From positions 160,001 to 224,000 of the IMG/VR virus record IMGVR_UViG_3300031760_000001: 64,000 nt of DNA. One strand, 5' to 3'. The translations under genes were made by a program, and so were the position numbers. The notes beneath the pieces are model-generated. The model worked only from the letters and a program-made list of their open reading frames with translations. It did not search any database and was not told where the DNA came from. Source of the DNA: a virus. Taxonomy: Duplodnaviria; Caudoviricetes. Below, one piece after another: positions 892 to 63,897 of the stretch (the stretch's first letter is position 1; the number at the start of each line of letters is the position of its first letter).

Positions 892-1296
892 ATGGCACAG
901 TATTTTTCTATAAATAGAGGCTCCGAACTACCGAAATTGCGTGTAGAACTTATTCAGGACGGTAAAACCGACTTCCGTAAATTCTATCTTGCAATTCAGG
1001 CAGCTGACTCTGTATCCTTTACTATGACAAACCTTGAAACTGGTATCAAAAAGATTGCCAAGGCACCAGCTGAGGTTGTCTATGATGAAAATTCTGGTTG
1101 TGAGGAAAGGTATCTTCTCCAATACACTTGGAAAAAGAGGGATACAAATGAAAGTGGTACCTTTATAGGTCATTTCCATATCAATTTCAATGACCAGGTT
1201 GTCGCTGACGGTATGGTTTTCCCAAAGGGTGAATTGATTGTGCCGATTGAAGAAGATATTGTAATAATCGTGAAAGACTCTTGTATAAAAAAATGA
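892..1296 (+). CDS. Small virion protein, BppU N-terminal/Ig-like domain
   Basis: Pattern FSINRGSELPKLRVEL...LQYTWKKRDTNESGTFIGHFHINF...VFP resembles BppU_N-type domains. Confidence 0.5.
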   Translation: MAQYFSINRGSELPKLRVELIQDGKTDFRKFYLAIQAADSVSFTMTNLETGIKKIAKAPAEVVYDENSGCEERYLLQYTWKKRDTNESGTFIGHFHINFNDQVVADGMVFPKGELIVPIEEDIVIIVKDSCIKK

Positions 1297-3623
1297 ACAT
1301 AAATGAGGTTATAAATAAAATTGTTAGAAAGTTGTTAAACGAAACATATTTTAACACCGATTCTGTATCAGGACCGTATAAAGCTAACCGTACTATACAG
1401 TTGTTACATGACTATATAAATTCATTTCCACCACGTACAAGCAATTTTGTCATACCATATGTAAATTTAAATCCTAAACAGAAAAATATTTTAGCTTTAA
1501 TTGCTGAATGTAATGGAACTACACTTCAAAAAGTTCTTGATACTGTATATTACAGATATGCAAAAGTTAAAACAACAAAAGACATTGCCATTGTTCCAGA
1601 TGATTTTCTAGGTGAATTCTTAACAGCTGACACAAGGGAAAATGTTTATGTGACACAAGGCGAAAGAGACTCAGAAGCACAATTTGGTATGGCTTTAGTT
1701 GTTGGCAAATATTTAAACGATTTCAGAAACAGAATTGATTATGTACATTTTATTAAATATCTTAGTAAAGCATTAATAAAGTCTTATATAACCTGTATTG
1801 AGTCGCAATTAAAAAACCGTGTTGACTCACCATTAAGAAGTGACTTGTTCTTACCTACTGCTGGTAATAGTGTGTCATATAATGATGCTTTTAAAAATCA
1901 AGAAGAAAATATTTTACAAACAATACTTAATGATAAAAATATACGTTTAAAACCACAGGAAAGAACTATATTGCAAGCCTTTATGGAAGTTTGTGGTTCT
2001 AGTTTAAGTCCTGAAAACCTGGAAGCTTTGGCTGATTACCATGATACCAGAATAGCTAAAGGCAGCGATGGCAAATACGCTAAAGAAACCCAAGTGATAT
2101 ACAAAGAAATATCTGAAAGAACTGGAGTACCTCCTATTACTGTTGCAAAAGTGTTAAGTGGTATAATTAGCCAACTTAAAAAAAGTAAATATTCTAATTA
2201 TAACTGGAATTCTAATTTAAACATAGTTTCACCAAATGCACAACAGCCAGAACAAATTACCAACAACGTTCCTACTACACAACCAAAACAGGCTACTAAT
2301 AGAGTACCTAATCCACAGCAGACTTTCACACAAAAAATAACAAAAGCTGCTCCAGTTCAACAGCAGCCAACACAAAAACTAAGACCTAAAAAGAAACCAA
2401 ATAATTATACTATTAGTGGTGCCACACCAACCGATAATTATACCACTATGACTGAATCGAATAATAAAATCCAAAATAAAAACAAAATGAGAAAAAAAAT
2501 ACAATTAACCGAAAGTGTATTGAAACAAATGATTATCCGTGCAATTAACGAATCATTATATGAAGTAGGTAAACCAGTAAGCGCTTGGGAAAGCATTAAA
2601 AATTGGGCTTTTGCTGTTAGAAATGGAGCAGACCCAATTCATTGTAAGGAATTTAATGATTTTTATAAAATAATTATTGAAAACCCTTATTGTGAAAACG
2701 CTGTAAAAATGGGGTTTGCTTATGAAAGTAAAAATCAGAGTACTGTTGGTGGTAATACAACACTGAATATTGATAAAATGTTTGCAGTAACACCAAAAAT
2801 CGCTAGCGATGTTCTTACTGATTTTCTTACTGGCGAGAACTGCGTGGTAACAGATTTTCATACGAAAGATGGTGAAACTGTTGCTACAAAACCAGACTCA
2901 TTCGTCGGTGATAATGTGATTAAATGTGCAAAAGCTGCATTAAATGGTGAGACAAGCGACTTTTTCAATGTTCTTTGCAAACAACTTAGAACTTACGGTG
3001 CCCACTATTGTAGAAAACATTATGGCGAATTGTCAATGCAATGGGGTCTGGGTGCACAACAAATCGGTGGTGATAAATCAAATGCACTTGAAGATGAAGA
3101 AGATAGTGATTACACGGAAGATTTCAATGAACCAGGAAAAGATATTGAAATAGACGCTGGCAACAAGGTTGAAAGAGACCCATATTCAGGCGAAGAAGTT
3201 GACGACTCAAACGTTGGTTTTGATAAAGCGGCTGATGTAACTTCAGTTAAAAATGACTATGACGCACGTATGGTCAGACAACTTAGAAAAATCATTAACG
3301 ACCCACAAACCACTTTAGCACCACAAGAGAAAAAGGTTTTAAAGGCTATAATCTATATCAAATCACATGGCGTTAGTGACGACAGACTTGAGAAAATGCA
3401 AGGTGCATCTGAAACCCAGCAAAGACTAATATTATACGACCAAGTGGGAGAAATGCTTGGAATGCCTGTTATTAATGTCCAAAGAAGTATTTCATCTGCT
3501 ATTAGTAAAGCTAGACAAAGTAAACTAGCTAAAATGAATAATGTTGATGAACAAAGAAAGCAAAAACTCAATCAACTTATCAATGAGGTAATCAGAAAAG
3601 TTATGAAAAAATATTTAGGATAA
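1293..3623 (+). CDS. Tagged polyprotein with two tandem sigma-factor-like (region 2 / region 4 HTH) units
   Basis: ATG at 1293 overlaps the upstream stop (ATGA). Two homologous halves end in LxPQExxIL...YxEIxExxGxPxxxVxxxxSxxISxxK sigma-r4-like helices. Tag motifs occur at the N-terminus, the middle and the C-terminus. Confidence 0.55.
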   Translation: MNINEVINKIVRKLLNETYFNTDSVSGPYKANRTIQLLHDYINSFPPRTSNFVIPYVNLNPKQKNILALIAECNGTTLQKVLDTVYYRYAKVKTTKDIAIVPDDFLGEFLTADTRENVYVTQGERDSEAQFGMALVVGKYLNDFRNRIDYVHFIKYLSKALIKSYITCIESQLKNRVDSPLRSDLFLPTAGNSVSYNDAFKNQEENILQTILNDKNIRLKPQERTILQAFMEVCGSSLSPENLEALADYHDTRIAKGSDGKYAKETQVIYKEISERTGVPPITVAKVLSGIISQLKKSKYSNYNWNSNLNIVSPNAQQPEQITNNVPTTQPKQATNRVPNPQQTFTQKITKAAPVQQQPTQKLRPKKKPNNYTISGATPTDNYTTMTESNNKIQNKNKMRKKIQLTESVLKQMIIRAINESLYEVGKPVSAWESIKNWAFAVRNGADPIHCKEFNDFYKIIIENPYCENAVKMGFAYESKNQSTVGGNTTLNIDKMFAVTPKIASDVLTDFLTGENCVVTDFHTKDGETVATKPDSFVGDNVIKCAKAALNGETSDFFNVLCKQLRTYGAHYCRKHYGELSMQWGLGAQQIGGDKSNALEDEEDSDYTEDFNEPGKDIEIDAGNKVERDPYSGEEVDDSNVGFDKAADVTSVKNDYDARMVRQLRKIINDPQTTLAPQEKKVLKAIIYIKSHGVSDDRLEKMQGASETQQRLILYDQVGEMLGMPVINVQRSISSAISKARQSKLAKMNNVDEQRKQKLNQLINEVIRKVMKKYLG

Positions 3624-16807: not shown

Positions 16808-17053
16808 ATGAAAAGTAAAATAATTAAACTCAGTGAAGCACAGTATAAACAGCTGATAAATGAAGACTATCCATTTTCATATCTCGGAAATGAATCTTCA
16901 GATACAAATCATGCTAGTGAGGTAGGTGCTAATGTGCCGTATGATTCACCTGATATTGAACCTGAGCCAACTGATGCTGACAAAATCAGCCACACATTAA
17001 GTAATAACTCCTGGTGGAACAGACACTATGGATTCAACGGATATTGTCGATAA
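16808..17053 (+). CDS. Small tagged protein (putative internal head protein)
   Basis: N-terminus MKSKIIKLSEAQYKQLINE. Confidence 0.6.
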   Translation: MKSKIIKLSEAQYKQLINEDYPFSYLGNESSDTNHASEVGANVPYDSPDIEPEPTDADKISHTLSNNSWWNRHYGFNGYCR

Positions 17054-17056
17054 ACA

Positions 17057-18333
17057 TGATACATTTTATAACAGAGGGTGGTAACGGAAACAAAGAATTA
17101 AAGACTCACCGCTGGTTTCTTCCAGACGGTGTACGCCACCATTTGGAAAAAGTCAGGGATGACAATAAAAAGGAAGAATTATCTAAAAACCATACCACAA
17201 AGGAGGCTTGGGACCACTTGGAGTTTATTCTTAACAGTGAGAAAGGTATCGCTTATAACGAAATGAAACGTATCAAAAACTGGTTTGACAAAAATTACAA
17301 CGCCACCAAAACAAAACAATATGAATTGTATGGTGGAAACATAATGAAGACTTGGGTTGAAAACCAGTTGAACAGCGCCACCCTGTATGTGAAAAAACAC
17401 AAGGAGGCACAACGTGCTATGGGTAAGGAAAACGCTTTCATAAAACCGCATGAAGCTGACAGGCAGAACACAGTATCAAAAGTTGATTCAAAAGTGCCTA
17501 CTTATAATCCAGCTACATTGAACAAACAAAACCGTCTTAAAGAATTATCAGATTTACATGAAAATAAGGTTATTGTTCTGGATGAATCACAGAGAATGAC
17601 CTTAAAGGAAGTGTTGAGCAATAAAATCAGAAGTGATTTTTTCCAGGAATTGGACACTTATGCTTCTGTTGAGGATTACGGTGATTGTTTCAAACTTTGC
17701 AGACAATATCTAGATTATGCGATAGGAAGAGGTTCATCCAGGGCGGTGTTTCAATTGGATGATGAAAAAGTCCTTAAATTAGCTATGAGTGAACAGGGTA
17801 TAGCTCAAAATAAGGCTGAAATAGACGCTTATCGAAAAACCACAAAATATAAAGACCTGTTCCCACGGATATTTAGCGTTGGCTATAATAACACTTATTT
17901 TATTACGGAGTATGTTTTACCATTAAATATATTATCTGGTTCACCACAGGGTGATAACTATGTTGATGATATATATAACTGTTTAGGTGTTTCAGAAAAT
18001 GAATATATGAAATTAACAGAAATCATTAAAAATAATACATTTGATAATAATGGCACTCTTAAAATGGAAGACCTTAAGGTAATGCCATTTGAAGGTACTA
18101 ACATGAGTGTATATGATTTCTTGAATATGAAAATGAAAGAAAATGCAAATTTTAATTTACTAATGCAATATCTACTTGATAATCCTAATTTGGCAGGTGA
18201 ATCATTCAAACAGCCAAATATGGGAATGACTAAGAGAAACGGAAAGGCCTGGATAGTTATTTTGGATAACGGATGGGACGGTGACGTTGCTCAGTTATAC
18301 AATTATCCTAATTTCGGTAAATTAAATGTTTAA
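17057..18333 (+). CDS. Two-domain tagged protein with C-terminal protein-kinase-like domain
   Basis: Likely start MIHFITE at 17057. Internal tag LHENKVIVLDESQRMTLKE, then Gly loop GRGSSRAVF, VLKLA, helix C GIAQNKAE and ILDNG. Confidence 0.65.
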
Positions 18334-38034: not shown

Positions 38035-38109
38035 TATAATATACCTTTTAATATATAATATAAATATATTGGTATTTATTATTATACACAAAAAACTTTA
38101 CCACACTAT

Positions 38110-38916
38110 ATGAAAAAAACTATATTTTTAACCGAATCGGATTTAAAACATCTTATATCGGAGTGTGTCTTGGAATACTGTACACATAACAGGGTTGAAG
38201 AAGGGAAAACAGGCAATATATTAACCGCATTAGGTCTTGTTGCTGGCGGGATAACTGGATTGGGATATACAGATACACCGAATACAAAGCAACAGCAAAT
38301 TATCCCACCACAGACGATGTACCAAATGGATAAAAGCCCAAAAAACAATGACTCAACTATCAACTATTACGATTACGTAAAAAACCAAATAACGAATCGT
38401 TTCAAACAAACCGACAACAATCCGAAACAAGAAAAACCTCAAATACAAAGAGAATATTATCCAAGCGACAATGTGATTAATTTCATAAAGTCGTATGAAT
38501 CATTCCATGAAGGATGGATTGACGACGGAGATGGTAATTTGACAACAGGGTGGGGTTTCAAAATGACCCCAGAACTTAAAAAAAGATTCCCTACAGGAAT
38601 GCACCGTGATAAAAACGGCAACACACCAGAAGCAGATGCTTACTTGAAGGAATATATAAATAATAATCTTGGATTGTTTAAAAAATATACACCAAACCTT
38701 GATAAACTTCCGCAAGAATATGCTGATGCTTTGTTTGATGTATATTACAATGTTGGCCCAAATGTATACAAAAACAGTCCAAATCTACAACATGCGTTGA
38801 AAAATGTAGATTTGCCACAAATTGCAAACAACCTTAAATACGGAAAACTAAAAGGACACAAAAAACGTAGTGCAGACAGAAAAAACATGTTGAAAGGAAA
38901 TTATAAACGTAGTTAA
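38110..38916 (+). CDS. GH24 (T4-type) lysozyme with N-terminal tag and hydrophobic segment
   Basis: Catalytic triad E-x8-D-x5-T in KSYESFHEGWIDDGDGNLTTGWG, and DALFDVYYNVG. N-terminus MKKTIFLTESDLKHLISECVLE. Confidence 0.8.
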   Translation: MKKTIFLTESDLKHLISECVLEYCTHNRVEEGKTGNILTALGLVAGGITGLGYTDTPNTKQQQIIPPQTMYQMDKSPKNNDSTINYYDYVKNQITNRFKQTDNNPKQEKPQIQREYYPSDNVINFIKSYESFHEGWIDDGDGNLTTGWGFKMTPELKKRFPTGMHRDKNGNTPEADAYLKEYINNNLGLFKKYTPNLDKLPQEYADALFDVYYNVGPNVYKNSPNLQHALKNVDLPQIANNLKYGKLKGHKKRSADRKNMLKGNYKRS

Positions 38917-39300: not shown

Positions 39301-41364
39301 TTATCTCATCTCGTTGATGTCCCAGTGCATCAAACCATCGCACTTGATAGCACCATAATATCTGTTGTTAACGAGTTTCTTCGCATAACGTGTGCAGATA
39401 CCCTTGATAGGAGCAAAGTTGAATGGGTTGTACATGGTTGGGGTAAGTGCCATAGGAACGTATGGAGCGTAGATGTAACCAGTGTCAAGCAAGCTTGTAC
39501 CGTGGTGACCCATAATCAATGACCAGTGTGGAGCATATGGGTCAACAGTTACGTTGTAACGGCCCTGGAGAGCACCGATTTTCTCAATACCCATGTTGTA
39601 AGTGTCGCTTTCTGCGCTAGCGTCAGTTACGTGGAAGTATTCGAGGTCGTTCAAAACAGCGCTGATTTCAGCTGAAACGATAATCCAGTTTGCACCACCA
39701 CGAAGGGTTGATTTCTGAATCTGAGCACTGATTTGGTTAATCTTAGTCATAATTGTCTGGTTCCAGTCTTTCTGTGTGTAAACAGTTGAAGTGGTACCAA
39801 GTCTCTGCCAACCGTTGTAGTCCCAACGAGCAGTCCAAGGAGCGCTCTTACGGATGTCACGGAGGATTTCGCGGTCGATTTCAGCAGCAATCTGCTCTGA
39901 AAGGATAGCGGTCAATTCAGCCTCTGCGTCAAGGTTGTGGAATGCGCTAACGTCCTGAGCAAGTTCTGGTGACCAGGTTGCACGGAGTTTACGTTCCTCA
40001 ACAGCAACGTCAACTGAAGTAAGCTGGAAGCTGACCTCACCCATTTCAGTTTCAAGCTCAAGGCTGTCATATGAACACCAAGCAATCTTGAAGAAACCAT
40101 CAATTGGGTCAGTAAGTTTGGTAAGGTCTGCCAATGCAGGTGACTGTGGGTCAATACCAATGTAACCGTCAAGACTCAAACCTTGTTTTGTAGCAGGTTT
40201 AGTGAGGTCAAGTTCGATGTACATGTTACCGTTAGCGTCAGCAACTTCCTGTTGATTCCAGTTTACGAGCTGGTCGCCGTATTTCTGGGTAACAACGCGG
40301 AACTGAATACTTTCATTAGCTGCGAAAGTTGAGAAGTCACCAGTTGTTTTGGTGATAGGTTGTGAAGCAATAACTTTCAATGAAGCCAAGAAAGCCTCGG
40401 TGTCCATTTCATTGCCGTCAGGACCAGTAAGGTGACCTGCATTGTATGAATGGAAACCACTAAGTTCAACTAAAAGTGAACGGACTGAACCATCCTGTGC
40501 ATAAACTGGAATGGTGCTGATTTTCTGATATGAACCGTCTGGGGCAATCTGAACAGGAACTGCTGTACCCATGCAGATAGTGATTTTACCCTTTGAATTG
40601 TCATACAAGAAATCGTTGTAGAAGAGGTCATAAAGGGTCTTCTTCATGTACTGAGTAACGATTGGCTCAACAACACCTTTACCAATAAGCTCTAAAGTCT
40701 TACCAGTTGTGTCATAAGTGTTCTTACTACCGTCAGGTCTTACTGATGGTTTGTTGATTTCATAGTAATCAGTACCATCTGTCCAAACGCGAACACCGTC
40801 TTCTTTAACGAAGTATTGTTCAACTTTAGTGATACCTTCACCCTGAACTGTTACACTCTCATCTGGGAGGTAGTAACGGTTATTCTGGGCACCGCCATTA
40901 CCAATCATGTTGTGCTTAGCGTCATATGAATAAGCGTTACGGTCAGTTCTTTCATAACCCATAAGACCACGATGACGACCAGTGTCACCAGCAGTAAGCT
41001 GACCTGGAGTCTGGAAGTTCCATTCGCGCTCTGAAGTAACAGGTTTAATGTAGAACAACTTACCGATAGGAAGGTTCATAGCCTGAACTGAAACGATGTC
41101 GTTAGCAAGGAGCTTGCTGAATACACGACGGATAAGTGGGAAAACAACAGTTTCAAATGAACCACTGTTGTCAGAAGCGGTAGCTTCTCTCAAAAGGTGT
41201 TTAGCCTGGTTCTCATAAAGGGTAGCAACAGTCTCTTTAATGTTGCCTTCAAGACCCTTGACCAATCCAAGGCGGTCCCAACGTGCCTGGATGTCTTCTC
41301 TGATTTTTTTCTGTGCGTTGAGCTCAATGTTGCCAACTGCACCTGATGTGAGTAATTCTCTCAT
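39301..41364 (-). CDS. gp23: Major capsid protein, T4 gp23-like
   Basis: PLIRRVF..LLANDIVSVQAMNLPIG, RKLRATWSPELAQD..AFH.LDAEAEL..ILSEQI..EIDREI and YAPYVPM...F.P..G..TRYA; strongly biased codon use. Confidence 0.95.
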   Translation of the reverse strand: MRELLTSGAVGNIELNAQKKIREDIQARWDRLGLVKGLEGNIKETVATLYENQAKHLLREATASDNSGSFETVVFPLIRRVFSKLLANDIVSVQAMNLPIGKLFYIKPVTSEREWNFQTPGQLTAGDTGRHRGLMGYERTDRNAYSYDAKHNMIGNGGAQNNRYYLPDESVTVQGEGITKVEQYFVKEDGVRVWTDGTDYYEINKPSVRPDGSKNTYDTTGKTLELIGKGVVEPIVTQYMKKTLYDLFYNDFLYDNSKGKITICMGTAVPVQIAPDGSYQKISTIPVYAQDGSVRSLLVELSGFHSYNAGHLTGPDGNEMDTEAFLASLKVIASQPITKTTGDFSTFAANESIQFRVVTQKYGDQLVNWNQQEVADANGNMYIELDLTKPATKQGLSLDGYIGIDPQSPALADLTKLTDPIDGFFKIAWCSYDSLELETEMGEVSFQLTSVDVAVEERKLRATWSPELAQDVSAFHNLDAEAELTAILSEQIAAEIDREILRDIRKSAPWTARWDYNGWQRLGTTSTVYTQKDWNQTIMTKINQISAQIQKSTLRGGANWIIVSAEISAVLNDLEYFHVTDASAESDTYNMGIEKIGALQGRYNVTVDPYAPHWSLIMGHHGTSLLDTGYIYAPYVPMALTPTMYNPFNFAPIKGICTRYAKKLVNNRYYGAIKCDGLMHWDINEMR

Positions 41365-41425: not shown

Positions 41426-43114
41426 TTATTTGCCAAGTCTCATAAGTCTTTCGTTGAGGTCAAGGATTTTGTTCAAGTCCTCTGACTGGTTGAGCATATT
41501 AGTCTCGACAATCATATTCTTGTTCTGACCTTTGGCTTCTGACAACTGTTTGTCAAGCAAGTTGCTGTTGTTAACTTTGTGTGCGCTTTTCAGCTCGGTT
41601 GAAATCTGGCTGTAAAGGTTCTTGCACTCGTTAAGCGATTGTACTTTGTTAAAGCGATTCAAGATATTAATCTTTTCCTCTCTTGATGTAGCGTTTTCGG
41701 TTATAAGCTTGATGACTTTTGCTAAACTTGCGTTGATAAGGACAGCTTCGTTAAGCTGCTGCTTAATCTGGGCTGCGATATCTTTCAGTTCTTTGTTTTC
41801 GGCAAGTACAGCGCTAGCCTGTCTTTCGATAGCCGCAATTCTGTTCTTGTTTTCGTCAACTTCTTTGTAGCCATCGCCAGTACCTCTAAATTTGCTTGGC
41901 TCTTCGGCATTGTGGTGACCGTTTCTGATTTGACCACGGTCAGTATCATTACCTCTTTGTTTACGGGTAACACCACGACCGAAACCACCATGTCTGCCAC
42001 TTGTGCTGCTAGCAGCTTCATCAACTGGCATGTCAGGTGTGTTAGGCATATTCATCTCAACCTCGAAAATGGTTTCTTCGTTGCACTCATTGTTGCACTC
42101 ATTGTTACCACATTCGTCAGTGTTTTCACTCATAGGTTGTTTGGTTTTCTGTGAATATGGGTTACCGCCATTCTGACCATCGTGTCCTACCCAGCGTTTC
42201 TTGTTGTTAGCACCGCCTTTAGGAGCACCGTCGTCGAAACGGCTGTCGCCTTCACCTTCGCCTTTATCGGTTGGCATAGTCATCGCTGATTTGTTCTGAT
42301 AATTGTCAGTATAACCTAAATTAACATTACCTTCATTTACCATGTCGTCATTTTGTGTTTCGTCATTATCATCGCCAAGTTCGAGTTCGAATGTCGTTTC
42401 ACCGTCCTCGCCCTGGTTGTCACTTTCGATATTTCCCAAATCAATGTCATCCATCATACCTTCGCCACCCTCAGTGCCTTCTGGACTCATACCATCGTCA
42501 CCGTCAATAGCGTTGCCTTCTGGATTCATATCATTTTCGAAATCGTTTGGCTCGGCATTGTCGCCGTCATCGGTTATATCAATGACAAATTCAGTGTCAC
42601 CGTCCTCGGTCTCAACTGTTGCAGTCTCGTCATCATTTTTGATGAAGCGAAGACCGTCACCAGGTTCCATATTCTGGATGACCTTCAAAACTGTCTTGAT
42701 ATCTTTTCCTCTCAGGTCGTATTCACCGTCACTGTCCATACAGTCAGAAATCTCGTCCCAAACATCACCACCTTCGGCATTGGCATCGCATTCGCCGCCT
42801 TCGCAAGCGTCAGCATTGTCGTTACCGCTTTCCAGGTCAACATTGACATCAGCGTTATCACCTTCTGGTGCAGCACCTTCGTCGTTGTTGTCATTTTCAG
42901 GCTCGGCATTGAACTCAGGCTGGTCGGTGTCAACCTCTTCTTCGTAAGAATCATTATCAGATTCAGCAAGCATTTGTCTCAAACTCCTGTTAACCTTCTC
43001 GTCAAGCAAAGAACTTAAAGACTCTTTTGTAGATTCCTCAAGTACCTTAGCCATAGCGTCTTTGTCAGCTACAAGACTTTTGATATACTTAGTTCTAATT
43101 TCTTTCTTAGCCAT
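41426..43114 (-). CDS. Prohead core/scaffold protein (gp22-like position)
   Basis: Very acidic disordered middle and C-terminal coiled coil; immediately upstream of the MCP; many [LIV]-x-E sites. Confidence 0.75.
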   Translation of the reverse strand: MAKKEIRTKYIKSLVADKDAMAKVLEESTKESLSSLLDEKVNRSLRQMLAESDNDSYEEEVDTDQPEFNAEPENDNNDEGAAPEGDNADVNVDLESGNDNADACEGGECDANAEGGDVWDEISDCMDSDGEYDLRGKDIKTVLKVIQNMEPGDGLRFIKNDDETATVETEDGDTEFVIDITDDGDNAEPNDFENDMNPEGNAIDGDDGMSPEGTEGGEGMMDDIDLGNIESDNQGEDGETTFELELGDDNDETQNDDMVNEGNVNLGYTDNYQNKSAMTMPTDKGEGEGDSRFDDGAPKGGANNKKRWVGHDGQNGGNPYSQKTKQPMSENTDECGNNECNNECNEETIFEVEMNMPNTPDMPVDEAASSTSGRHGGFGRGVTRKQRGNDTDRGQIRNGHHNAEEPSKFRGTGDGYKEVDENKNRIAAIERQASAVLAENKELKDIAAQIKQQLNEAVLINASLAKVIKLITENATSREEKINILNRFNKVQSLNECKNLYSQISTELKSAHKVNNSNLLDKQLSEAKGQNKNMIVETNMLNQSEDLNKILDLNERLMRLGK

Positions 43115-49832: not shown

Positions 49833-49895
49833 AATATGATGCAATTTATACTATTATATAAATATAATATTTTATATTAATTTTATCAAGAAAAT

Positions 49896-49951: not shown

Positions 49952-50698
49952 TTATAACAAAATCTGATTAATTCTGTTTATTTTCTCATTAACCAAAGGT
50001 TTATCATTCTTTGATTCATCTGATTCAATGAACTGAACCAAATCCTGCATGTTTTTTGCAATATAAGCATTTGGGGTACTTGGTTCAAGAACGATATCCC
50101 AACCAATAAGTTCAAAATCGTTACCAACTTCAAGAACACCAAGTCTTTCCTCAACTGAACCAACACCACGTGATGAAACACCAATCAAAATATCATTTAA
50201 TATCATGTTAGCTGCCAAGTCACCACTTGTGCCAGGAATACCGTAACGTCTGTAACCTGGAGTCAAATGTAATTCCATTTCACCAATTAAGGTATGACCT
50301 TTCCATTCCAAGTTAGTGATAACATGACTAACATCATGTCCTGAAAGTGTACTTGATTCTGGGTGGTCTAATGCACCAACAGAAGCTCTAACTCTTACTC
50401 TTTCATTGATATATTTGTCAACCTCACGTTTCAAAATCATTTCTGGGTAAACCCTGCCGTTAGCATTTTTAATTCCATATTTCTGGAAAACAGCACTTAC
50501 GATAAATTTATCAGGAATAACAAATTCCTTGTGATGCTCAATATCTTCTTTAATCTGAGCAACCATATCGCGGTTTCCGATAACATGACCTGCATCGTGT
50601 TCAATCAACAAGCCAGTACCAGTCTCACCTTTCTTTACCTCAGTGAGATTACCACGTTTGTCACCATATTTTCTTAATATTTCTTGTGTTATATACAT
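49952..50698 (-). CDS. gp21: Prohead core protease, T4 gp21-like
   Basis: KNANGRVYP, GALDHP, VSHVIT, GVSSRGVGS and DIVLEPSTPNAY. Confidence 0.93.
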   Translation of the reverse strand: MYITQEILRKYGDKRGNLTEVKKGETGTGLLIEHDAGHVIGNRDMVAQIKEDIEHHKEFVIPDKFIVSAVFQKYGIKNANGRVYPEMILKREVDKYINERVRVRASVGALDHPESSTLSGHDVSHVITNLEWKGHTLIGEMELHLTPGYRRYGIPGTSGDLAANMILNDILIGVSSRGVGSVEERLGVLEVGNDFELIGWDIVLEPSTPNAYIAKNMQDLVQFIESDESKNDKPLVNEKINRINQILL

Positions 50699-50715: not shown

Positions 50716-51069
50716 TTAATATTCTTCATTATATTCATCATCCCAGCCTAAATAACGATTGATGGTGTTTATGGTTCTAGTTGATAACCTTGGACTATCC
50801 TGTATATAGAAATGGTCATCATGCAACCTGTTGTCACCTCTTCTGAAATATACATATCTTGGGTCGTTTTCAGCAGTTCTGCTTTTCCATATCTGTACAT
50901 ATGCAATATCACCACTAACTTCAACATTACCATTTCTTAATCCCTGCATGAAAGCCCTGGCTTCGCTTTTCCATTGTTCTGCAGCGTCTTCATTTAACCT
51001 GATACGGTTAACGGTTTCCATAACCAGTTTTGATATATCATTTTCTGTCAATCTAATAACCTTTTTCAT
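50716..51069 (-). CDS. Tagged hypothetical protein (putative internal head protein)
   Basis: N-terminus MKKVIRLTENDISKLVMETVNRIRLNE. Confidence 0.7.
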   Translation of the reverse strand: MKKVIRLTENDISKLVMETVNRIRLNEDAAEQWKSEARAFMQGLRNGNVEVSGDIAYVQIWKSRTAENDPRYVYFRRGDNRLHDDHFYIQDSPRLSTRTINTINRYLGWDDEYNEEY

Positions 51070-51747: not shown

Positions 51748-52146
51748 CTAATAAGTTGTAAGATTCCAGTCTGAGTCAGACACAAGATTACCATTTCTAT
51801 CAAACCATCCTTTATAATCAATCCACTTATCACCCCTTTCTAAATGCCATAAATAATCACCATCAAAATAATGGTTCTTAATATTCCTTATTTTTTGTCT
51901 GATTGGGGTAATATCGCCACCTTCATTCTCAACATCTTCAATACTATATCTTAGATTGCGTAATTCTCGGTAGGCTGCACGGATTTCTGGACGATTATCA
52001 AAATTCATATGACTTCTAGTTCTGTCTTCCTTATCTTGAGCACTTGGTATTTGTCCCATGTCGACCTCTTCTTGTATAATCCTATTCACACTTTCTCTAA
52101 TTAGGTTTTTTAATTCACTTTCCTTGAGTCTAACAACTTTCTTCAT
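51748..52146 (-). CDS. Tagged hypothetical protein (putative internal head protein)
   Basis: N-terminus MKKVVRLKESELKNLIRESVNRIIQE. Confidence 0.7.
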   Translation of the reverse strand: MKKVVRLKESELKNLIRESVNRIIQEEVDMGQIPSAQDKEDRTRSHMNFDNRPEIRAAYRELRNLRYSIEDVENEGGDITPIRQKIRNIKNHYFDGDYLWHLERGDKWIDYKGWFDRNGNLVSDSDWNLTTY

Positions 52147-53235: not shown

Positions 53236-55287
53236 TTATTTTTTTTCATCGGTTATGTGCTTCTCCAAACCTTTCGCAATTGAATTAAGTTCCTCATTCA
53301 CCAGGAAACTTTTCTTATACAACGGTGTATTCAATTCCTGTCTTTCCCTTTCTTTCGCTTCATTCACTTTTTTCAAGAGCAAATGCTGATAATGTTTGGT
53401 TTTAGTCATAAGGTCTTTTTTAACTGTTTTCTGCTCGTTTATGGTTTTCTTCATCAATCGGTCGAAAAAGATTTCATTCAATGGCTCAGCACTTTCACTA
53501 CCACTGTCATCACCACCTTCTGATGCTGCTGCATCATCCATAGACATGTCACCCTCGGCACCAGTCATTTCGCCACCCATATCATCGCCAAGGCCACCAT
53601 CGTCTAATCCTCCAGGCATTCCACCGCCAGGCATTCCGCCTCCGCCTCCCATGTCATCTTCCTGTCCTTGACCGCCAGCTGTGTCGCTATATTCAGCGCC
53701 AGGTTCACCATAAAGGTTGTCAACCTTGTCAAACAATCCAGTGCGTTTGATAATCATTATTGTCTTTTCAAGTTCAGCAGCCAAAGCCTTTTCAAGTCTC
53801 AATTCTTCAAGGTTGTCACTAATCTGTTTGTCACTCCAGCCAAGAATCTCTTTCTGGGCACGGGTAATTGAGTACAACGGCAATCCGCCACCTGGGTCAG
53901 CAACCGCACTTTTAGCCATTTCAATTTTCTTGCTTAAATTGTCAAGTTCCATCATTTCAGCCTGTGATGAAGGGTTGTTCATTGTCAAACTGAAATTGGT
54001 AAGGTCATCCTCAAAACCAAGCAAATACAAATGGATGATACACACTTTGGTAAGTTCCATAAGCATCATCTGCTGCACTCGGTTTATTGTTTTGGTAAAC
54101 CTGACATCCAACAATGAAAGGTTTTTGCCATCACCAGCAACCTCCTCAAAATTAATGAACGGTTTTGGAACCCTTAACGCTGTGCAAAGTTTATTCTGGA
54201 CAAATTTAATGTCATCCATTGCGGTAAGGTTGTTACCAGCGGACAATGTTTCAATAGGATTCGGTTCACTTGGGTCACGTACTGGAATAAAATAATCATC
54301 CATATTGGACAATATGTTTCTTCTCAAGTCAATCTGACCAGTCAACGGGTCATAAATTGGAGTTCTTTTGAAGTTATTGGCAACCTCATCCATATATGCT
54401 GGAACATCCTGCTCGTCAATTGCGCCCACGTTGACCTTGAACACACGTCTTTCAACTGAACGTTCAAGACGGTACATAAGCATCATATCCTCCATCATTG
54501 AAAGCATACGCCAGTGACGACGGGCTTTATTCAAAGCACTTACGCCATATGGCAAATACAATGAGTCATAAAGGAGTCTGAAATGTGCAATCTGCCAGTT
54601 CCTGTAAGGGGTAAATTCGTTCTTTCCAACCCAGATGAATTTTGTTGAATCTGGTAAATCCACATCAATGTTAGCCACGTTAGCGAATCCTGAACTGTAT
54701 GGATTATCCATACCATTCTCAAAACGCTGCATCTCATATACTGGAAGCTGTTTCCATCCAATGATACCGTTATCCTCTGTTATGTTCAAGAGCATAAATG
54801 TATTACCGTACTTGACAGTGCTTCTTGTAATCATAGGGAATATGATGTCAGCTGACAGACGGTTATATATCAAATCTTCAAGGATTGATTTGATACGTTC
54901 TGATTTCGATGTGACATTAATCATCATACCATTTGGTTTGATGTATGTTGCCTCTTCCATATATATATCTAGGGCTGCACCGATTTCAGGGAACAAGTCC
55001 ATCATATCGGCTTCCCTGTACATCATCTGCACCTCAGTCATGTTGGCTAGGGCATTGTTCTGGGTTTCATACTGAGCCCTTTTCCATTGTTTAGCTAATA
55101 ACCTCTGTTGTCTTAACTGAGTCAGCTTTTGTGTATAGTCTTCCTTTGACCTGGTTGTGTATATCACGTCATTACTACCAAGCCCAGCGTAATTATGAAT
55201 ACTACGGCTGTAGTTGGTAGAAGTTGGTGATGGTATCGCTGTTCCACCGCCAAAGGTCTTGTTTAATCTCTGAAATATAGTTGGCAT
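53236..55287 (-). CDS. gp20: Portal protein, T4 gp20-like
   Basis: YR..D..PEI..ALDI..EE, L.MMEDMMLMYRLERSVERRVFKVNVG, DYFIPVR, IETL..G.NL..MDDIKF...L..ALRVP. Confidence 0.95.
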   Translation of the reverse strand: MPTIFQRLNKTFGGGTAIPSPTSTNYSRSIHNYAGLGSNDVIYTTRSKEDYTQKLTQLRQQRLLAKQWKRAQYETQNNALANMTEVQMMYREADMMDLFPEIGAALDIYMEEATYIKPNGMMINVTSKSERIKSILEDLIYNRLSADIIFPMITRSTVKYGNTFMLLNITEDNGIIGWKQLPVYEMQRFENGMDNPYSSGFANVANIDVDLPDSTKFIWVGKNEFTPYRNWQIAHFRLLYDSLYLPYGVSALNKARRHWRMLSMMEDMMLMYRLERSVERRVFKVNVGAIDEQDVPAYMDEVANNFKRTPIYDPLTGQIDLRRNILSNMDDYFIPVRDPSEPNPIETLSAGNNLTAMDDIKFVQNKLCTALRVPKPFINFEEVAGDGKNLSLLDVRFTKTINRVQQMMLMELTKVCIIHLYLLGFEDDLTNFSLTMNNPSSQAEMMELDNLSKKIEMAKSAVADPGGGLPLYSITRAQKEILGWSDKQISDNLEELRLEKALAAELEKTIMIIKRTGLFDKVDNLYGEPGAEYSDTAGGQGQEDDMGGGGGMPGGGMPGGLDDGGLGDDMGGEMTGAEGDMSMDDAAASEGGDDSGSESAEPLNEIFFDRLMKKTINEQKTVKKDLMTKTKHYQHLLLKKVNEAKERERQELNTPLYKKSFLVNEELNSIAKGLEKHITDEKK

Positions 55288-55428: not shown

Positions 55429-56061
55429 ATGAAACAAACAATACGACTCACGGAAAACGAACTAACAGAGCTCATTAAGGAAAGTGTGTATAGAATGTTG
55501 AATGAAAAGGTTAACGAATTTAATGATTGGAAAGCGCAGATGCTCTATGGAGGAAGTACCAAGGATTATGAAGGTAATCCGACCAACTTCAAAAACTTTG
55601 ATGGTATTGACAAGGCTAATAAAATAGCAAAGGGTCAGTATAATGCCGACGCAGCTGGTTCAGACTATGTTGATACGTCAAAGGATTACAACACACTGCA
55701 GCTTGACCCTAATTATGGGTTCATGCAGAGTAGTGAGAACGGTCAAAATGGACGCACACATAATTATTTCACTATACGTGCTCCAAAGACATACGGGAAA
55801 AATGACCGTGGTGAGATGTCATACAACAGTAATAACAATGCCGTAGGTGGTGGTGAATACATGGGCAACATGAAAACCAATAAAGCTAAGAATTTCCAGC
55901 AGAGGCTTGGTAATGACATGATAGACTATTATAACGGTAATTATAAAGAAAGGTTAAAGCAAAAATCATCACAACTTGGAAACGCAAACAGTGGTCAAGA
56001 TTTTACTCCTAAAGTTTTAAAGGAGGCTGTTTCCCGTGCCATCCGAAATTATCTTTATTAA
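55429..56061 (+). CDS. Doubly tagged hypothetical protein inserted antisense between portal and terminase
   Basis: N-terminus MKQTIRLTENELTELIKESVYRMLNE; C-terminus VLKEAVSRAIRNYLY. Confidence 0.7.
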   Translation: MKQTIRLTENELTELIKESVYRMLNEKVNEFNDWKAQMLYGGSTKDYEGNPTNFKNFDGIDKANKIAKGQYNADAAGSDYVDTSKDYNTLQLDPNYGFMQSSENGQNGRTHNYFTIRAPKTYGKNDRGEMSYNSNNNAVGGGEYMGNMKTNKAKNFQQRLGNDMIDYYNGNYKERLKQKSSQLGNANSGQDFTPKVLKEAVSRAIRNYLY

Positions 56062-59171: not shown

Positions 59172-59563
59172 TATCTCAGAAATTTTTCAATGGTAACTAA
59201 TTTTGAATTCTCTTTCAGTTTTCTCAAACGGATTTCATCCAACTGTTTTTTAGAAATTATAACAGATTCAAGTTTAGAATCACCACCAACGGTTATTGTT
59301 TGTTGTTTGTTATCATTATCTGGGTCAGCATTAATTGAAACATCATTATTAATGTTTGAGTTATTTGGAACCTTTTCAGCTGCCTTTGTTGCAGCAACAA
59401 TGGCGTTGCCAATTTGACCTGCTGTTTTTGGTGTTGTATTACCAGGGGTATTGTAATGAAGTGACAAACTACCGCCGTTTGGGTCAAGAACCTCTTCCAG
59501 GTTTTCTTTGATAATGTTTCTAATCTCTTTATCCTGTTGCTCACTAATTTTAATCTTTTTCAT
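59171..59563 (-). CDS. Tagged small protein
   Basis: N-terminus MKKIKISEQQDKEIRNIIKENLEE. Confidence 0.6.
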   Translation of the reverse strand: MKKIKISEQQDKEIRNIIKENLEEVLDPNGGSLSLHYNTPGNTTPKTAGQIGNAIVAATKAAEKVPNNSNINNDVSINADPDNDNKQQTITVGGDSKLESVIISKKQLDEIRLRKLKENSKLVTIEKFLR

Positions 59564-60399: not shown

Positions 60400-62012
60400 T
60401 CTTTTTTTTTACCTAAAGCGGTAACCACAGCGTTAGTAATAGCGCTTACGACATCCTCGAATGGGTCGCCACTGTGACCGATTTTCAAACCATAAGGTTT
60501 CTCACCCTTAGCTGATTCGTCATTCCAGTCCTCACCCCATTTTGAACCATCTGCATTTGGAGGAAGTGACATAACTTTCTTCTGGTAGGCTGGGTGTTTA
60601 CCAAAGTCGTCAAGTTTTGTCTCAACAATTCTCTTGATTGATTCATAAAGCATATTCATGCCATCTTCATCCTCAGGAGTTTCCATAGCATTATCACCAA
60701 ACTGTGCATCGCCTTCAGCATCATTGATTGGATTGAAGTCATCGTCATCCATTGGAAGATTTGCAAGTGGGTCTTCGTCAAAGTCAACACCAAGCGAACC
60801 AGCGCCTTCACCATACTGGTCAAGGTGGTTGTAGATATCGTCATCATTAAGGTCACTGTTGATTGTTGTGCCATCACCACCGAAATCACTGCCAAGGATA
60901 TTCTCAGCTGAACCCTCAACTTCTGGATTTTCGAAATCACCGCCAAGTTCAACCTCAAAAACATTTTCGGTTACAGGTTGAGTTACACCATTCTGGTTCT
61001 CGAAAGGCTCTTTATATTTCTTGGGGTCGCCGATACCAGCGCTTGATGGAAGACCATCATCCCATTCAGTAGTTTCAAAATTCTCATTAACGTTAACAGT
61101 GTCATCATATGGAGCTGTGTCACCGATTTCAGTGCCGTGTGAACGGTCAAGTTCGCTGTCACTTGATGGGTGTACAAATGCTCTGTCATCTCTCCAAGCC
61201 AAAACTTGTTTTTTCTGTTCTTCGGTAAGTTTAAGTACACGTTTAGCTTTACCTTCGTTAGTAACACTCTTACCTTGTTCTTTTGAAGTCTTAGCTTTTT
61301 CCTGGTAAGCGTTGCCACCTTCCTTGTCGATGTTGTTGTCACCACAAGCAGCTTTATATTCACCGCTTGGACTTGTACCTTTAACACCATTCTTGTTGTA
61401 TACAGTTTCAGGATTTACCTGTTTACCGTCATCAACATAGCTTTTATCCTTGATACCAAGGTTCTGTTGTTTGCCTTTTGGACCTTCTGTACCGCCACCA
61501 TCTTTGGTTGAAGGGTTGTTTGTGAAAGGAGCGTTTTTATCCTCTTTGATGTAGTGAACATTTTCACTGAGGATATTGTCAACGTTCTCACACAACTGGT
61601 AGAAACGGTCCAATTCAGCTTTAGCTTCCTTGTTCTCTTTGTTTTCCCATTCAGCTGATTCATTGATATTGAACTGTGACTTGACAGGTTCCTTGCTTCC
61701 GTTTGCCTCATTAACGTGGATAAGCTCCAGATTAAGGGCGTTTGAAGCCTTGGTGTATGAATCATAGCTTTTACGGTTAAGGTAACCGCCGATATAATCA
61801 TAGTCTTCAGCCAAAATCTCGGTATTTTTCTTAGGAGCAACCTTTACGAAATATTTTGTACCTTCACGAAGAATTCCATAGGTTTTTCCGTCAGCACCAA
61901 CCTGGCTATATTCAACGATACCGTTTGTGTTAACAGTATTCTTTGATTCGTTTATGCCGTACATCATAAGACGCTGCATAGTTTCGAGTTCTTTTGTATA
62001 ATCTTTACTCAT
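60396..62012 (-). CDS. Acidic protein with many protease-type sites (putative head core protein)
   Basis: GINES, NINES, TNEGKAKRVLKLTEEQKK, VTENVFEVEL and MLYESIKRIVET. Confidence 0.6.
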   Translation of the reverse strand: MSKDYTKELETMQRLMMYGINESKNTVNTNGIVEYSQVGADGKTYGILREGTKYFVKVAPKKNTEILAEDYDYIGGYLNRKSYDSYTKASNALNLELIHVNEANGSKEPVKSQFNINESAEWENKENKEAKAELDRFYQLCENVDNILSENVHYIKEDKNAPFTNNPSTKDGGGTEGPKGKQQNLGIKDKSYVDDGKQVNPETVYNKNGVKGTSPSGEYKAACGDNNIDKEGGNAYQEKAKTSKEQGKSVTNEGKAKRVLKLTEEQKKQVLAWRDDRAFVHPSSDSELDRSHGTEIGDTAPYDDTVNVNENFETTEWDDGLPSSAGIGDPKKYKEPFENQNGVTQPVTENVFEVELGGDFENPEVEGSAENILGSDFGGDGTTINSDLNDDDIYNHLDQYGEGAGSLGVDFDEDPLANLPMDDDDFNPINDAEGDAQFGDNAMETPEDEDGMNMLYESIKRIVETKLDDFGKHPAYQKKVMSLPPNADGSKWGEDWNDESAKGEKPYGLKIGHSGDPFEDVVSAITNAVVTALGKKKE

Positions 62013-62088: not shown

Positions 62089-63897
62089 TTAACGTCGATA
62101 ATATGTATTAAGTATTTCTTCGGATAATCCTGAATCAATTACAACCAGTTCAGGACTACCGTCACGCATAACCATTCCGTATGTTGAAATCCTTGTCAAA
62201 TCACCAAAAGGCAATTGATAGTCACCCATCAGATTAAATATACGTGGCACAAAACCGTAGTCATCTTCATCATATAATTTATCAACAAGTGCGTCCGCCT
62301 CATCTGTTGTCATGGTAAACAAATGAGTCTGTCTGCCATTATAACAATACCTGTTATAATAATATCTAACTAAATCACAATAAGTCTCAAAAGGTAAACC
62401 AATCAATCTTTCAAAATCTTCCTCTTTTGCAGGAACACAATTTTCCTCAACGAGCCACATATAATTGTCATCACAATCAAACACCTGTACAACCATACTG
62501 CCATATCTAGATGTCTGTTCTTCAAACTCATTTTGGGCAATGCCTTTTTTGTTTTTAGCTAGTTTCAAAACTTTTTCATCATCTATCTCAAAAATAATCC
62601 TGGATGAACCAGAACCGAATGATGGACCCAACATCTGTTTGCAATATTTCAATCTGCCAGCAAATGATTTAATTGATGAAAGCGTCTGTAAATTAAATTC
62701 TGTCATAGCCGCTTCATTAATGGCGCTGACATCATCTGTGTTTATGAAATTATCCATGTTAGCTGCTGGCATTCCGTCATCTTCAGGCGCTGGTGGTTCA
62801 GGCGTTCTGAACGGATTTTCTTCTGGAGTGTTTGGCAGTATTGGTTCAGGTGTGGGTTGGGCTTCAATATTAAGCAGTTTTTTAAGTTGTGCTATACGGT
62901 CAGTCAAAAGCCATTCAAGGTCTCGCTTACTATATACCCCAGGTGTAATCTGTTTGATTCCCATCCTTTGCACTGCATCGTGTAAATCTGCTGTTGTGAT
63001 TGTATTGCACTTTAACACTTTTTTGAAACGTCCTAACCAGGAATTCAAATACACATTGCCATATCCTGGATTACCACCCTCTTTTAAAAGTTTCGCCTGT
63101 TTTTCTGTAATCCTGACAATCTTTCCAGTGACTTCATCAATGGTGTTACTGCGGTCATATACATTGTTTATGTAATTCCACAGTTTTTCAATGTACCCCA
63201 TATGTTTTATCACTTTCCATATGATGTTTCCAGTTGACATTTCCTTTTCGCTGGAAGCCAGACCTTCGCTACGCATGTTTTTAAGTTTCGTGTATATGTT
63301 CTCAACCTCGGTCGAAAGCTTCTTCATTTTGACCTTATCATCCTCGTTGTCCAATTTGTCAAACAAGTCATCCAGTTTGGTCATCTGTTTTGCACAGAAA
63401 CTTTTGATATATTCTTTGTTAAGTTTTGAATCATTCAAATTTTCAGGTTCCTTCACCCACTTGTTCTTCTCCAGTGAATAAACACCAGTCGATTTGGCTG
63501 GGTCTGATGAATCCTCGACACTTATCTCAACTGGAAAATCCTTAATTGTCAATTCCGTATGTGTGCTGTTCCACAATTCTTTCTTTGAATTGAAATAATC
63601 TTTAACGAAATCAGTTTTCTTATATATGTCACTGAAATTATATACAATGTGAATATCCACATCCGAATATTTTGACCAGTTGTAGTTGGCAATTGAACCA
63701 GTCAGAACAATATCGGACGGTTTGACCCACTTCACTTCCAGGGATTCCACAAAGTCGTCGGCAATATCCAGCAACTTCAGCCTAATCTGGGAGTCAAGTT
63801 GACCGTCTTCATTAAAGAACTCAGGGTTGAGTTTGTCCTTAACCTTAAACGGTTTCATATCAATATCGTTTGTTTCAACCTCGTTAATATTTTTCAT
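62089..63897 (-). CDS. Tagged polyprotein: nucleotidyltransferase plus protein-kinase-like domain
   Basis: Pol-beta-type LTGSIANYNWSKYSDVDIHI; internal tag GKIVRITEKQAKLLKE; then AINE followed by GSGSSRIIF...VLKLA...GIAQNEFE...GDL...VIDSG. Confidence 0.75.
   Translation of the reverse strand: MKNINEVETNDIDMKPFKVKDKLNPEFFNEDGQLDSQIRLKLLDIADDFVESLEVKWVKPSDIVLTGSIANYNWSKYSDVDIHIVYNFSDIYKKTDFVKDYFNSKKELWNSTHTELTIKDFPVEISVEDSSDPAKSTGVYSLEKNKWVKEPENLNDSKLNKEYIKSFCAKQMTKLDDLFDKLDNEDDKVKMKKLSTEVENIYTKLKNMRSEGLASSEKEMSTGNIIWKVIKHMGYIEKLWNYINNVYDRSNTIDEVTGKIVRITEKQAKLLKEGGNPGYGNVYLNSWLGRFKKVLKCNTITTADLHDAVQRMGIKQITPGVYSKRDLEWLLTDRIAQLKKLLNIEAQPTPEPILPNTPEENPFRTPEPPAPEDDGMPAANMDNFINTDDVSAINEAAMTEFNLQTLSSIKSFAGRLKYCKQMLGPSFGSGSSRIIFEIDDEKVLKLAKNKKGIAQNEFEEQTSRYGSMVVQVFDCDDNYMWLVEENCVPAKEEDFERLIGLPFETYCDLVRYYYNRYCYNGRQTHLFTMTTDEADALVDKLYDEDDYGFVPRIFNLMGDYQLPFGDLTRISTYGMVMRDGSPELVVIDSGLSEEILNTYYRR

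Follow-up and report, generated by a model that had tools for sequence, protein, structure and literature searches.

Passages on phage T4 describe diverse internal proteins that have only a capsid-targeting sequence (CTS) in common (PMC3012670), a prohead protease, gp21, that cuts after L/I-X-E, an internal protein, IPIII, whose first 10 residues suffice for targeting, and a further protein, Alt, that loses both termini (PMC9026906). In phiKZ, 201phi2-1 and SPN3US, many head proteins are cut after Glu with few other determinants, the propeptides contain redundant sites and packaged proteins are ejected into the host; the passages concerned state no shared propeptide sequence for this group (PMC9026906, PMC5694885, PMC7411985, PMC10052503). 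The relevant passages of Iyer et al. 2017 (PMC5512222) predict packaging and injection for the polyvalent proteins of phages and conjugative elements, which string together unrelated modules. Here, a leader peptide (or tag) is described that recurs in a 64,000-nucleotide stretch of virus DNA, hereafter the window, which comprises bases 160001-224000 of the 244,784-bp IMG/VR record IMGVR_UViG_3300031760_000001 (36% G+C). The record, rated 69% complete as a whole by CheckV, is a giant uncultured T4-like phage of rumen bacteria, and the leader is a shared opening of 22-26 residues (27 in one copy) on many of its otherwise unrelated late proteins. Judging from sequence, we lean slightly towards reading this leader as the capsid-targeting propeptide of a clade of uncultured T4-like jumbo phages.

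The likeness to the CTS of IPI, IPII and IPIII and to the propeptides of Alt, gp67 and gp68 lies in a short N-terminal peptide on otherwise unrelated proteins, a protease of the gp21 (S77) family, a border of the L/I-x-E type, fast turnover of cargo genes between relatives, small tagged genes between portal and protease as with gp67 and gp68, and C-terminal elements as in Alt. The principle is known from T4; what is new is a longer, two-part leader, its repetition within proteins, C-terminal half-forms, its presence in thousands of protein clusters and partial carriage by insertion sequences (IS). The number of copies also differs from T4, with 15 strong copies in this 69%-complete genome and 7-19 in megaphages, and copies repeat in single proteins as joints. 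Unlike the phiKZ group, one conserved leader recurs here, and the protease is a canonical S77 enzyme whereas the gp21 homologues of that group have diverged. Polyvalent proteins share with the present system the InPase, NUDIX, metallopeptidase-like and methyltransferase domain types, whereas the modules here are small, mostly orphan and separated by leaders; the passages of PMC5512222 concerned mention built-in peptidase domains and no shared address peptide. Six 7-letter strings of the leader were found in no paper, and such a leader is described in none of the papers listed by a literature search, supplements not covered. It is likewise absent from the matched passages of the Jug-phage paper (PMC12880540), in which 'N-terminal' has 0 occurrences.

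The leader has the consensus MKxxIRLTESDLxxxIKESVxxxLxE. The initial annotation, made from the letters alone, had listed 13 copies in the window, and re-translation of the coordinates finds every one of them in place. A hidden Markov model (HMM) built from the seven strong window copies retrieved eight more from the rest of the genome (E 3e-10 to 0.002), after which the scores fell to 9.3 bits. After two iterations, 15 strong copies scoring 24.8-41.9 bits were present in 14 genes, 13 of them N-terminal, with two copies in one protein (genome 60102-60695). Shuffling the residues of the proteome never produced a score of 9 bits (0 of 50 proteomes; maximum 8.8), whereas 15 copies in the real proteome score 15 bits or higher; chance or low complexity is thereby excluded as the source of the leader. 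The strong copies of the window are as follows, in window coordinates, which are used throughout unless genome coordinates are indicated:

38110..38175, plus strand: strong N-terminal leader, 22 residues, 41.9 bits, on the 268-residue protein 38110-38916
50989..51069, minus strand: strong N-terminal leader, 27 residues, 39.0 bits, on the 117-residue protein 50716-51069, 18 nucleotides from the protease gene, with a late-type promoter 28 nucleotides upstream
52069..52146, minus strand: strong N-terminal leader, 26 residues, 36.1 bits, preceded by the promoter motif, on the 132-residue protein 51748-52146, between portal-side genes and protease
55429..55506, plus strand: strong N-terminal leader, 26 residues, 36.9 bits, preceded by the promoter motif, on the 210-residue protein 55429-56061, between terminase and portal genes
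36482..36559, minus strand: strong N-terminal leader, 26 residues, 24.8 bits, on the 211-residue protein 35924-36559
37517..37585, minus strand: strong N-terminal leader, 23 residues, 35.1 bits, on the 168-residue protein 37079-37585
2487..2552, plus strand: strong internal leader, 22 residues, 36.8 bits, at residue 404 of open reading frame (ORF) 1281-3623, starting at an in-frame ATG

Thus, seven of the 13 listed copies stand as full leaders, and the other six are weak half-tags, each non-significant alone (at most 9.3 bits). As a class (the Q variant) these weak forms are enriched, the pattern h-x-h-[STND]-E-x-Q occurring 11 times against 2.0 ± 1.4 in 200 shuffles (maximum 6). A regular expression (regex) for the helix core matches 7 times in the real proteome against 0.36 in shuffles, and three of the seven matches lie within 12 residues of a C-terminus, where 0.02 are expected; these C-terminal copies were detected by the short regex and missed by a helix-only HMM. 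The half-tags of the window are:

16808..16864, plus strand: weak N-terminal half-tag (Q variant), 9.3 bits, preceded by the promoter motif, on an 81-residue protein
59504..59563, minus strand: weak N-terminal half-tag (Q variant), on the 130-residue protein 59171-59563, which is kept at the same position in 4 of 4 relatives examined (L013, L014, L016, L017)
36583..36639, minus strand: weak C-terminal half-tag (Q variant), 5.2 bits, on the 168-residue HExxH protein 36580-37086
17563..17610, plus strand: weak internal half-tag (Q-variant class, non-significant alone), in the 439-residue protein 17014-18333
61209..61244, minus strand: weak internal half-tag (Q-variant class, non-significant alone), in the 538-residue head-module protein 60396-62012
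63079..63126, minus strand: weak internal half-tag (Q-variant class), in the 608-residue protein 62089-63915, which has a nucleotidyltransferase domain (NTP_transf_2, 23.9 bits, cut-off 21)
56014..56058, plus strand: C-terminal helix-only half-tag (helix-core regex), on the same 210-residue protein 55429-56061 that opens with a full leader
37588..37641, minus strand: C-terminal helix-only half-tag (helix-core regex), on the 168-residue protein 37585-38091

The profile search of the genome found no strong copy in polymerase-sized, dUTPase-region, glycosyltransferase or fibre-like ORFs, in keeping with the initial annotation. Features that go beyond that annotation are the wide spread of the leader, repeats within single proteins, C-terminal half-tags, carriage by IS1595 elements and isolated copies in host chromosomes without the protease. 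A homologue search with residues 1-40 returned 4 close orthologues only.

Over their first 60 bases, the leader copies of this genome are at most 68% identical in pairwise nucleotide comparison. The conserved leucine and threonine positions each use 4 codons, and serine is encoded by AGT, TCG and TCA. Because synonymous codons differ between the copies, the leader is selected at the protein level, and this variety, together with the low nucleotide identity, rules out recent duplication as the cause of its conservation. An RNA-level or translational element is likewise ruled out by the differing codons and by internal and C-terminal copies that have no promoter. The leader is charged and amphipathic and has no hydrophobic core, so a signal peptide is not supported.

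The proteins behind the leader are unrelated to each other, as had been proposed. Stripped of their tags, the bodies of 17 tagged proteins gave no pairwise BLASTP match at E<0.01, the sole exception being the two halves of ORF 1281-3623 (plus strand, 780 residues), which match each other with 28% identity over 122 residues (E 1e-9). These halves are separated by a Gln/Pro/Thr-rich linker and the full internal tag, helix-like half-tags are found at both ends, and the ORF looks like a fused tandem pair of cassettes. Pfam and PHROG scans assigned a family to few bodies only. The tagged protein 38110-38916 is a divergent lysozyme (Phage_lysozyme, 29.5 bits against a cut-off of 22.3, at residues 127-247; phrog_7 endolysin) in a genome that also encodes an untagged canonical phage lysozyme (genome 78329-78913, 125.5 bits). 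An EcoRI-like adenine methyltransferase is also tagged (genome 22654-23649; EcoRI_methylase, 1e-90). The HExxH protein 36580-37086 has sub-threshold matches to the metallopeptidase families DUF6782, M76 and M91, and weak metallopeptidase-like and phosphoribosyltransferase-like matches occur among the tagged bodies. InPase (1 of 150), SH3b_T, His_Phos_2 and others appear as single members among the best 150 database proteins described below. On these domain matches, the candidate cargo types EcoRI_methylase, second lysozyme, InPase and NUDIX would overlap with known packaged or injected proteins, as a comparison with passages of PMC5512222 suggests.

Two further observations concern these proteins. 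In the tagged lysozyme, a Gly/Ala-rich hydrophobic stretch that resembles a signal-arrest-release or membrane-insertion segment directly follows the leader. Outside the window, a 1417-residue late protein (genome 64540-68793; L004 4540-8793, minus strand) combines WG repeats with a C-terminal NUDIX domain (Pfam).

PHROG matches define a head module of the T4 type, with major capsid protein (MCP), portal protein, large terminase (TerL) and head maturation protease. Its members relevant here are:

39301..41364, minus strand: MCP (gp23-like), phrog_138 2.2e-65, T4 gp23 chains at E 1e-25, with candidate maturation sites I-K-E/T (42-45) and L-R-E/A (58-61), the slash marking the cut
53236..55287, minus strand: portal protein (gp20-like), phrog_213 2.7e-55
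49952..50698, minus strand: prohead protease of the T4 gp21 (S77) family, phrog_207 7.2e-36, Peptidase_S77, 5jbl
41426..43114, minus strand: acidic 562-residue scaffold-like protein with a predicted helical C-terminus, upstream of the capsid gene and preceded by the promoter motif; assigned by position and composition

The gp21-like protease proposed earlier is well supported by Pfam Peptidase_S77 (PF03420; 82.7 bits, cut-off 27) and by the T4 gp21 structure 5jbl (E 2.5e-15). A His and a Ser of the query fall inside conserved alignment blocks and presumably correspond to the catalytic residues of gp21. By eye, the protease ends in 14 residues that look like the helical portion of the leader. 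Family searches of the 562-residue protein gave no match, and its scaffold role is therefore proposed from position and composition; homologues with 26-30% identity occupy the same slot in five complete megaphage records (G001-G005, below). Two further ORFs with near-identical N-termini, of 1945 residues (43251-49088, minus strand) and 245 residues (49107-49844, minus strand), lie between the protease and scaffold-like genes. This pair is an unusual insertion in a T4-type head module, and other genes are found there in relatives.

Tagged genes occupy a characteristic position relative to this module. Two of them (50716-51069 and 51748-52146) are found in the interval from the portal-side genes to the protease, and the equivalent slot in T4 holds the processed core proteins gp67 and gp68. 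In 5 of 6 genomes, no more than 1.2 kb separates a tag start from the S77 gene; uniform placement would give a chance of 2e-5, a value uncorrected for shared ancestry, and since the genomes are related the true significance is lower. Tagged genes also share an upstream motif. The sequence TATTTAT[AT] occurs 132 times, with 77 occurrences in the intergenic 5.9% of the genome, and lies within 100 nucleotides (mostly 10-60) upstream of the capsid, scaffold-like, portal and TerL genes. It also precedes the genes for tail sheath, tail tube, baseplate wedge, a ClpB-like AAA+ protein and an SSB-like protein. From the genes it precedes and a presumed likeness to the T4 late promoter, we infer that the motif is a late promoter. 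Tagged genes are enriched for this late-type motif, which precedes 9 of 14 of them and 49 of 265 others (Fisher p 3.5e-4).

The leader ends in a hydrophobic-x-Glu motif, at the point where cargo modules begin. Among 246 database copies, 229 carry an [ILMV]-x-E whose last position is register 21 or 25 of the tag, whereas composition-preserving shuffles yield 76 (maximum 100; 500 shuffles); these two registers lie one helical turn apart. The residue after the border Glu is Ser, Ala, Gly or Asn in 122 of 239 copies, against a 25% background. When six modular homologues were aligned, one cargo module was seen to begin right after the border Glu in each of the five proteins carrying it, whether a tag or another module precedes; modules are reshuffled between proteins with tags as joints. 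Internal copies often have an E-S just before them. On sequence, these borders fit the gp21 rule of cleavage after L/I-X-E. The capsid protein itself had been said to carry a matching LLRE/A site, which is indeed present at residues 57-61, whereas alignment to mature T4 gp23 points nearer residue 45, beside an I-x-E. That estimate is a gapless extrapolation from a weak first alignment block (11 bits, E 1.1) to the mature chain, and the weak block favours I-K-E/T (42-45) over L-R-E/A (58-61) as the putative maturation site.

The closest cultured relatives are remote: portal identity reaches no more than 35% for Microcystis phage Mel-JY01, Flavobacterium phage immuto and Rhodothermus phage RM378, and none of the 2,234 records matched in the portal comparison attains 60%. 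Closer relatives are IMG/VR contigs with portals 74-94% identical to this one. Among these, the order of the conserved head genes is stable, while the set of tagged genes varies from contig to contig. The contig L013 has 8 tagged genes around the protease (3 before, 5 after), whereas this window has 2, and it encodes an ortholog of the 132-residue protein 51748-52146 at 89% identity. In comparisons of tagged genes of this type, the first 23-35 residues match and the remainder do not. At a larger distance, G001-G005 are five records of 295-413 kb that are rated 100% complete and have capsid proteins 57-62% identical to this one. All five encode the S77 protease, with 7-19 tag matches per record. 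In G001, G003 and G004 the gene order is a portal-side 311-residue homologue, a 144-residue gene, 1-4 tagged small genes, protease, scaffold and capsid, the portal gene itself being within the examined stretch only for G004. Tagged genes flank the protease in G002, and degenerate leader copies occupy the protease-adjacent slot in G005. Of ten further records, S77 was found in five, including two of the three rated at least 90% complete; S77 is thus found in 7 of 8 tag-bearing viral records at or above this completeness. The S77 ORF of some relatives is 402-609 residues long (L139 5807-7633 of G002; G012:C1:30848-31858). In these long ORFs the family match falls in two halves with about 350 extra residues between them, which could be an insertion, either intein-like or a domain.

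A second enzyme keeps company with the leader. The late-type motif precedes the gene of an 825-residue ClpB/Hsp100-like double-AAA+ protein outside the window (genome 229517-231994; L009 5517-7994, minus strand), which has matches to AAA_2 (6.9e-57) and ClpB_D2-small, lies directly upstream of the tagged gene at genome 229131-229502 and has homologues of 34-36% identity in each of the five complete megaphage records that carry the tag. The leader might accordingly be a recognition tag for this unfoldase or for another late quality-control factor acting in folding, timing or degradation. Common descent by itself would produce such co-occurrence, about 3 of 6 genomes have tags within 3 kb of the AAA+ gene against the closer and more frequent association with S77 noted above, and, to our knowledge, the leader is unlike known Clp degrons, which also counts against this role. 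We consider it highly unlikely.

The strand-plus-helix fold suggested for the leader in the initial annotation is reproduced by AlphaFold2 at moderate confidence. For a natural 77-residue protein consisting of two tags, a single-sequence prediction gave a strand (4-8) and helix (9-22) followed by a second strand (54-58) and helix (59-75), with a mean predicted local distance difference test (pLDDT) score of 63. Presumably, the two tag strands in this model pair with each other. Prediction of this genome's own two-tag protein from a 6-row alignment gave no usable model (pLDDT 47). A Foldseek search of the 77-residue model against the PDB returned nothing at E<=0.001, and the ESM Atlas gave no match above 0.80. 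The order of elements recalls the N-terminus of ribbon-helix-helix (RHH) proteins, in which an alternating strand is followed by an amphipathic helix, and weak profile matches to RelB-like antitoxins (PF25734) and DUF6290 were obtained: RelB_like_antitoxin at E 0.015 (residues 5-33 of the 55429-56061 protein) and DUF6290 at E 0.028 in the window, and RelB_like_antitoxin below threshold in 5 of the best 150 database proteins (best 2.5e-5). The leader may therefore be half of an RHH fold that serves as a general pairing or oligomerisation module, joining late proteins or binding DNA with no role in capsids or proteolysis; the frequency of two- and three-copy proteins among the best database matches, given below, is also in line with such a module. 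A full RHH domain would be a strand-helix-helix of about 45 residues above the curated threshold. The best match here reaches 15.6 bits against 27, and all family matches fall below their curated cut-offs. One helix is conserved, the sequence after the tag, where the second helix would lie, is unrelated between proteins, and a toxin partner is lacking while the leader occurs on hundreds of unrelated bodies. Besides the modest score of the model and its lack of a Foldseek match, a pairing module leaves unexplained the clustering beside the protease and the module borders at hydrophobic-x-Glu. As a full account it appears unlikely, though worth keeping in view, and it is compatible with a capsid address, since pairing could be how the leader binds the core.

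The leader is widespread. A profile, A1, made from an alignment of 31 leader copies matched 7,253 of 1.84 billion representative proteins of metagenome protein clusters at E<=0.001, and 69 at E<=1e-10. Among the best 150 proteins, 106 have two copies and four have three (110 multi-copy proteins in all), a list that favours multi-copy proteins because scores add up; the first copy lies within 10 residues of the N-terminus in 136 of them. Source names of 10 clusters were 'hypothetical protein' or absent, and Pfam scans of the window, the genome and the best 150 database proteins found no family covering the leader. A 13-residue DNA pattern of the consensus was searched in IMG/VR, where it gave 98 stretches, many on contigs of 240-413 kb, and in 185,579 species genomes, where it gave 17: 13 in Prevotellaceae, two in other Bacteroidales, one unclassified and one in an alphaproteobacterial metagenome-assembled genome (MAG), on a 3-kb contig. 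Most of the species-genome matches are rumen MAGs. Since they are mostly Prevotellaceae, the host clade of the tag-bearing jumbo phages is probably Prevotella.

Some of the copies in bacterial chromosomes are carried by insertion sequences. In Segatella bryantii DSM 11371 (L126 6932-7195), an 87-residue tagged ORF with a phage-type promoter lies in a low-GC islet with, by eye, a probable rRNA region on one side and a large glycosidase-like gene on the other. In Prevotella sp. MA2016 (L129 5795-6823), a 342-residue ORF with an internal tag and a phage-type promoter abuts an IS1595 transposase, again in a low-GC islet. A prophage origin of the copies in these two isolates was rejected, as the islets lie beside ordinary chromosomal genes or the IS1595 transposase. 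Both strains are candidate hosts for isolating tag-bearing phages. Of the loci examined, 10 of 17 from bacteria, 13 of 98 from viruses and none of the 10 portal loci have an IS1595 transposase, or what remains of one, as neighbour of the tagged gene, and in these pairs transposase and tagged gene are convergent. The transposase matches DDE_Tnp_IS1595 (PF12762; 146.4 bits) and a zinc ribbon (PF12760; 36.3 bits). In L081, 28-nucleotide inverted repeats that are 89% complementary (2446-2473 and 3937-3964) enclose transposase and tagged ORF; in three other loci examined, the repeats were unconvincing. Elements with a convergent promoter-leader ORF were observed at L081 2446-3964, in the bacterial loci L118, L120, L125, L127, L128, L129, L130 and L132, and in the viral loci L028, L043, L053 and L116. 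They resemble IS1595 insertion sequences with a passenger gene, in which a DDE_Tnp_IS1595 transposase and one further ORF lie between terminal inverted repeats. They differ in that the passenger always opens with the late-type promoter and leader while its body varies, and in that clear repeats are seen in one element (L081). Carriage of promoter-leader-cargo cassettes on an insertion sequence therefore explains part of the spread of the tag and the lone copies in hosts.

This association raises the question of whether the leader is a by-product of gene mobility, the promoter and first codons serving as a handle for recombination or transposition, partly on IS1595, and the peptide itself doing little. 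Such an origin would account for the transposase neighbours, for the L081 repeats, for the turnover of tagged genes between close relatives and for the IS-borne ORFs, in which a promoter-like motif, about 30 nucleotides of leader RNA and the first approximately 27 codons are nearly identical before bodies that differ. Even among these IS-borne copies, the serine codon is AGT or TCA, and in the present genome identity stays at or below 68% while residues are kept by different synonymous codons (AGT versus TCN for serine). Moreover, no IS1595 transposase is present in this 69%-complete record, copies at internal and C-terminal positions lack a promoter, and the peptide pattern is kept in 7,253 clusters. 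Mobility explains the spread of the leader and leaves its conservation as a peptide unexplained; as the reason for the leader it is improbable.

A capsid address is preferred because it accounts jointly for the S77 protease, the late-type promoter, the gp67/gp68 slot, the turnover of tagged genes, the borders and the multi-module proteins, and because T4 provides a precedent. From these we infer core binding, cleavage and ejection, as follows. Late in infection, many unrelated proteins would be made, each opening with a short β-strand and an amphipathic helix. During closure of the prohead shell, the leader would keep them bound to the scaffolding core or to one another. The gp21-family protease would then cut after hydrophobic-x-Glu at the end of the leader, a motif also found within the leader and at the joints of multi-module proteins. 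Mature cargo would stay in the head and be ejected with the DNA; candidates are the second lysozyme, the EcoRI-like DNA methyltransferase, the HExxH protein and many orphans.

Several considerations weigh against a capsid address, and part of the evidence for it loses force because the genomes share ancestry or because the cleavage motif carries little information. An L/I-x-E is contained in 47% of shuffled 16-residue segments, hydrophobic-x-Glu occurs three times within the leader as part of its amphipathic pattern, and small residues after the border Glu also fit a plain helix end or cap. Co-occurrence of S77 with the tag is largely explained by common descent, and the ClpB/Hsp100-like AAA+ protein co-occurs with the tag equally well (5 of 5 records). 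G017, rated 95% complete, has tags without a detectable S77, its capsid matches also being only fragmentary, and the five bacterial genomes tested (two isolates, three MAGs) each have 1-2 tags and no S77 protease. The predicted strand and helix fit a general pairing module as well as core binding. The hydrophobic segment of the tagged lysozyme could instead mark it as a membrane-tethered endolysin. A tblastn search of 50,697 cultured-phage records with the 30-residue tag and the two-tag protein gave no match. Finally, the 22-26-residue strand-plus-helix leader is 2-3 times longer than the 10-residue CTS of T4, and a search of the complete T4 genome with profile A1 gave nothing at E<=10; the leader is therefore an analogue rather than a homologue of the CTS.

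A bolder proposal is that the leader is a readable capsid-loading address for the whole clade of uncultured Prevotella jumbo phages, and that the IS1595 cassettes stay silent in their hosts until phage late transcription, when their products would be loaded into phage capsids. With such host-borne cassettes, a transposon could be giving its protein a ride, or the host could be slipping a 'poison pill' into the progeny virions. We give this proposal little chance of being correct.

Host defences encounter injected proteins before any other phage proteins; the T4 members of this class include the anti-restriction factor IPI and the host-takeover enzyme Alt. Should the leader prove to be only a pairing module, it would still be an unannotated motif in 7,253 protein clusters. 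If it is an address, it would offer a ready-made peptide for loading foreign proteins into such capsids, and it would exemplify the exchange of cargo genes in cassettes of promoter, leader and cargo, some of them on insertion sequences. Sequence alone would then suffice to list more than 7,000 protein clusters as candidate injected effectors of gut and rumen jumbo phages that are not yet cultivable.

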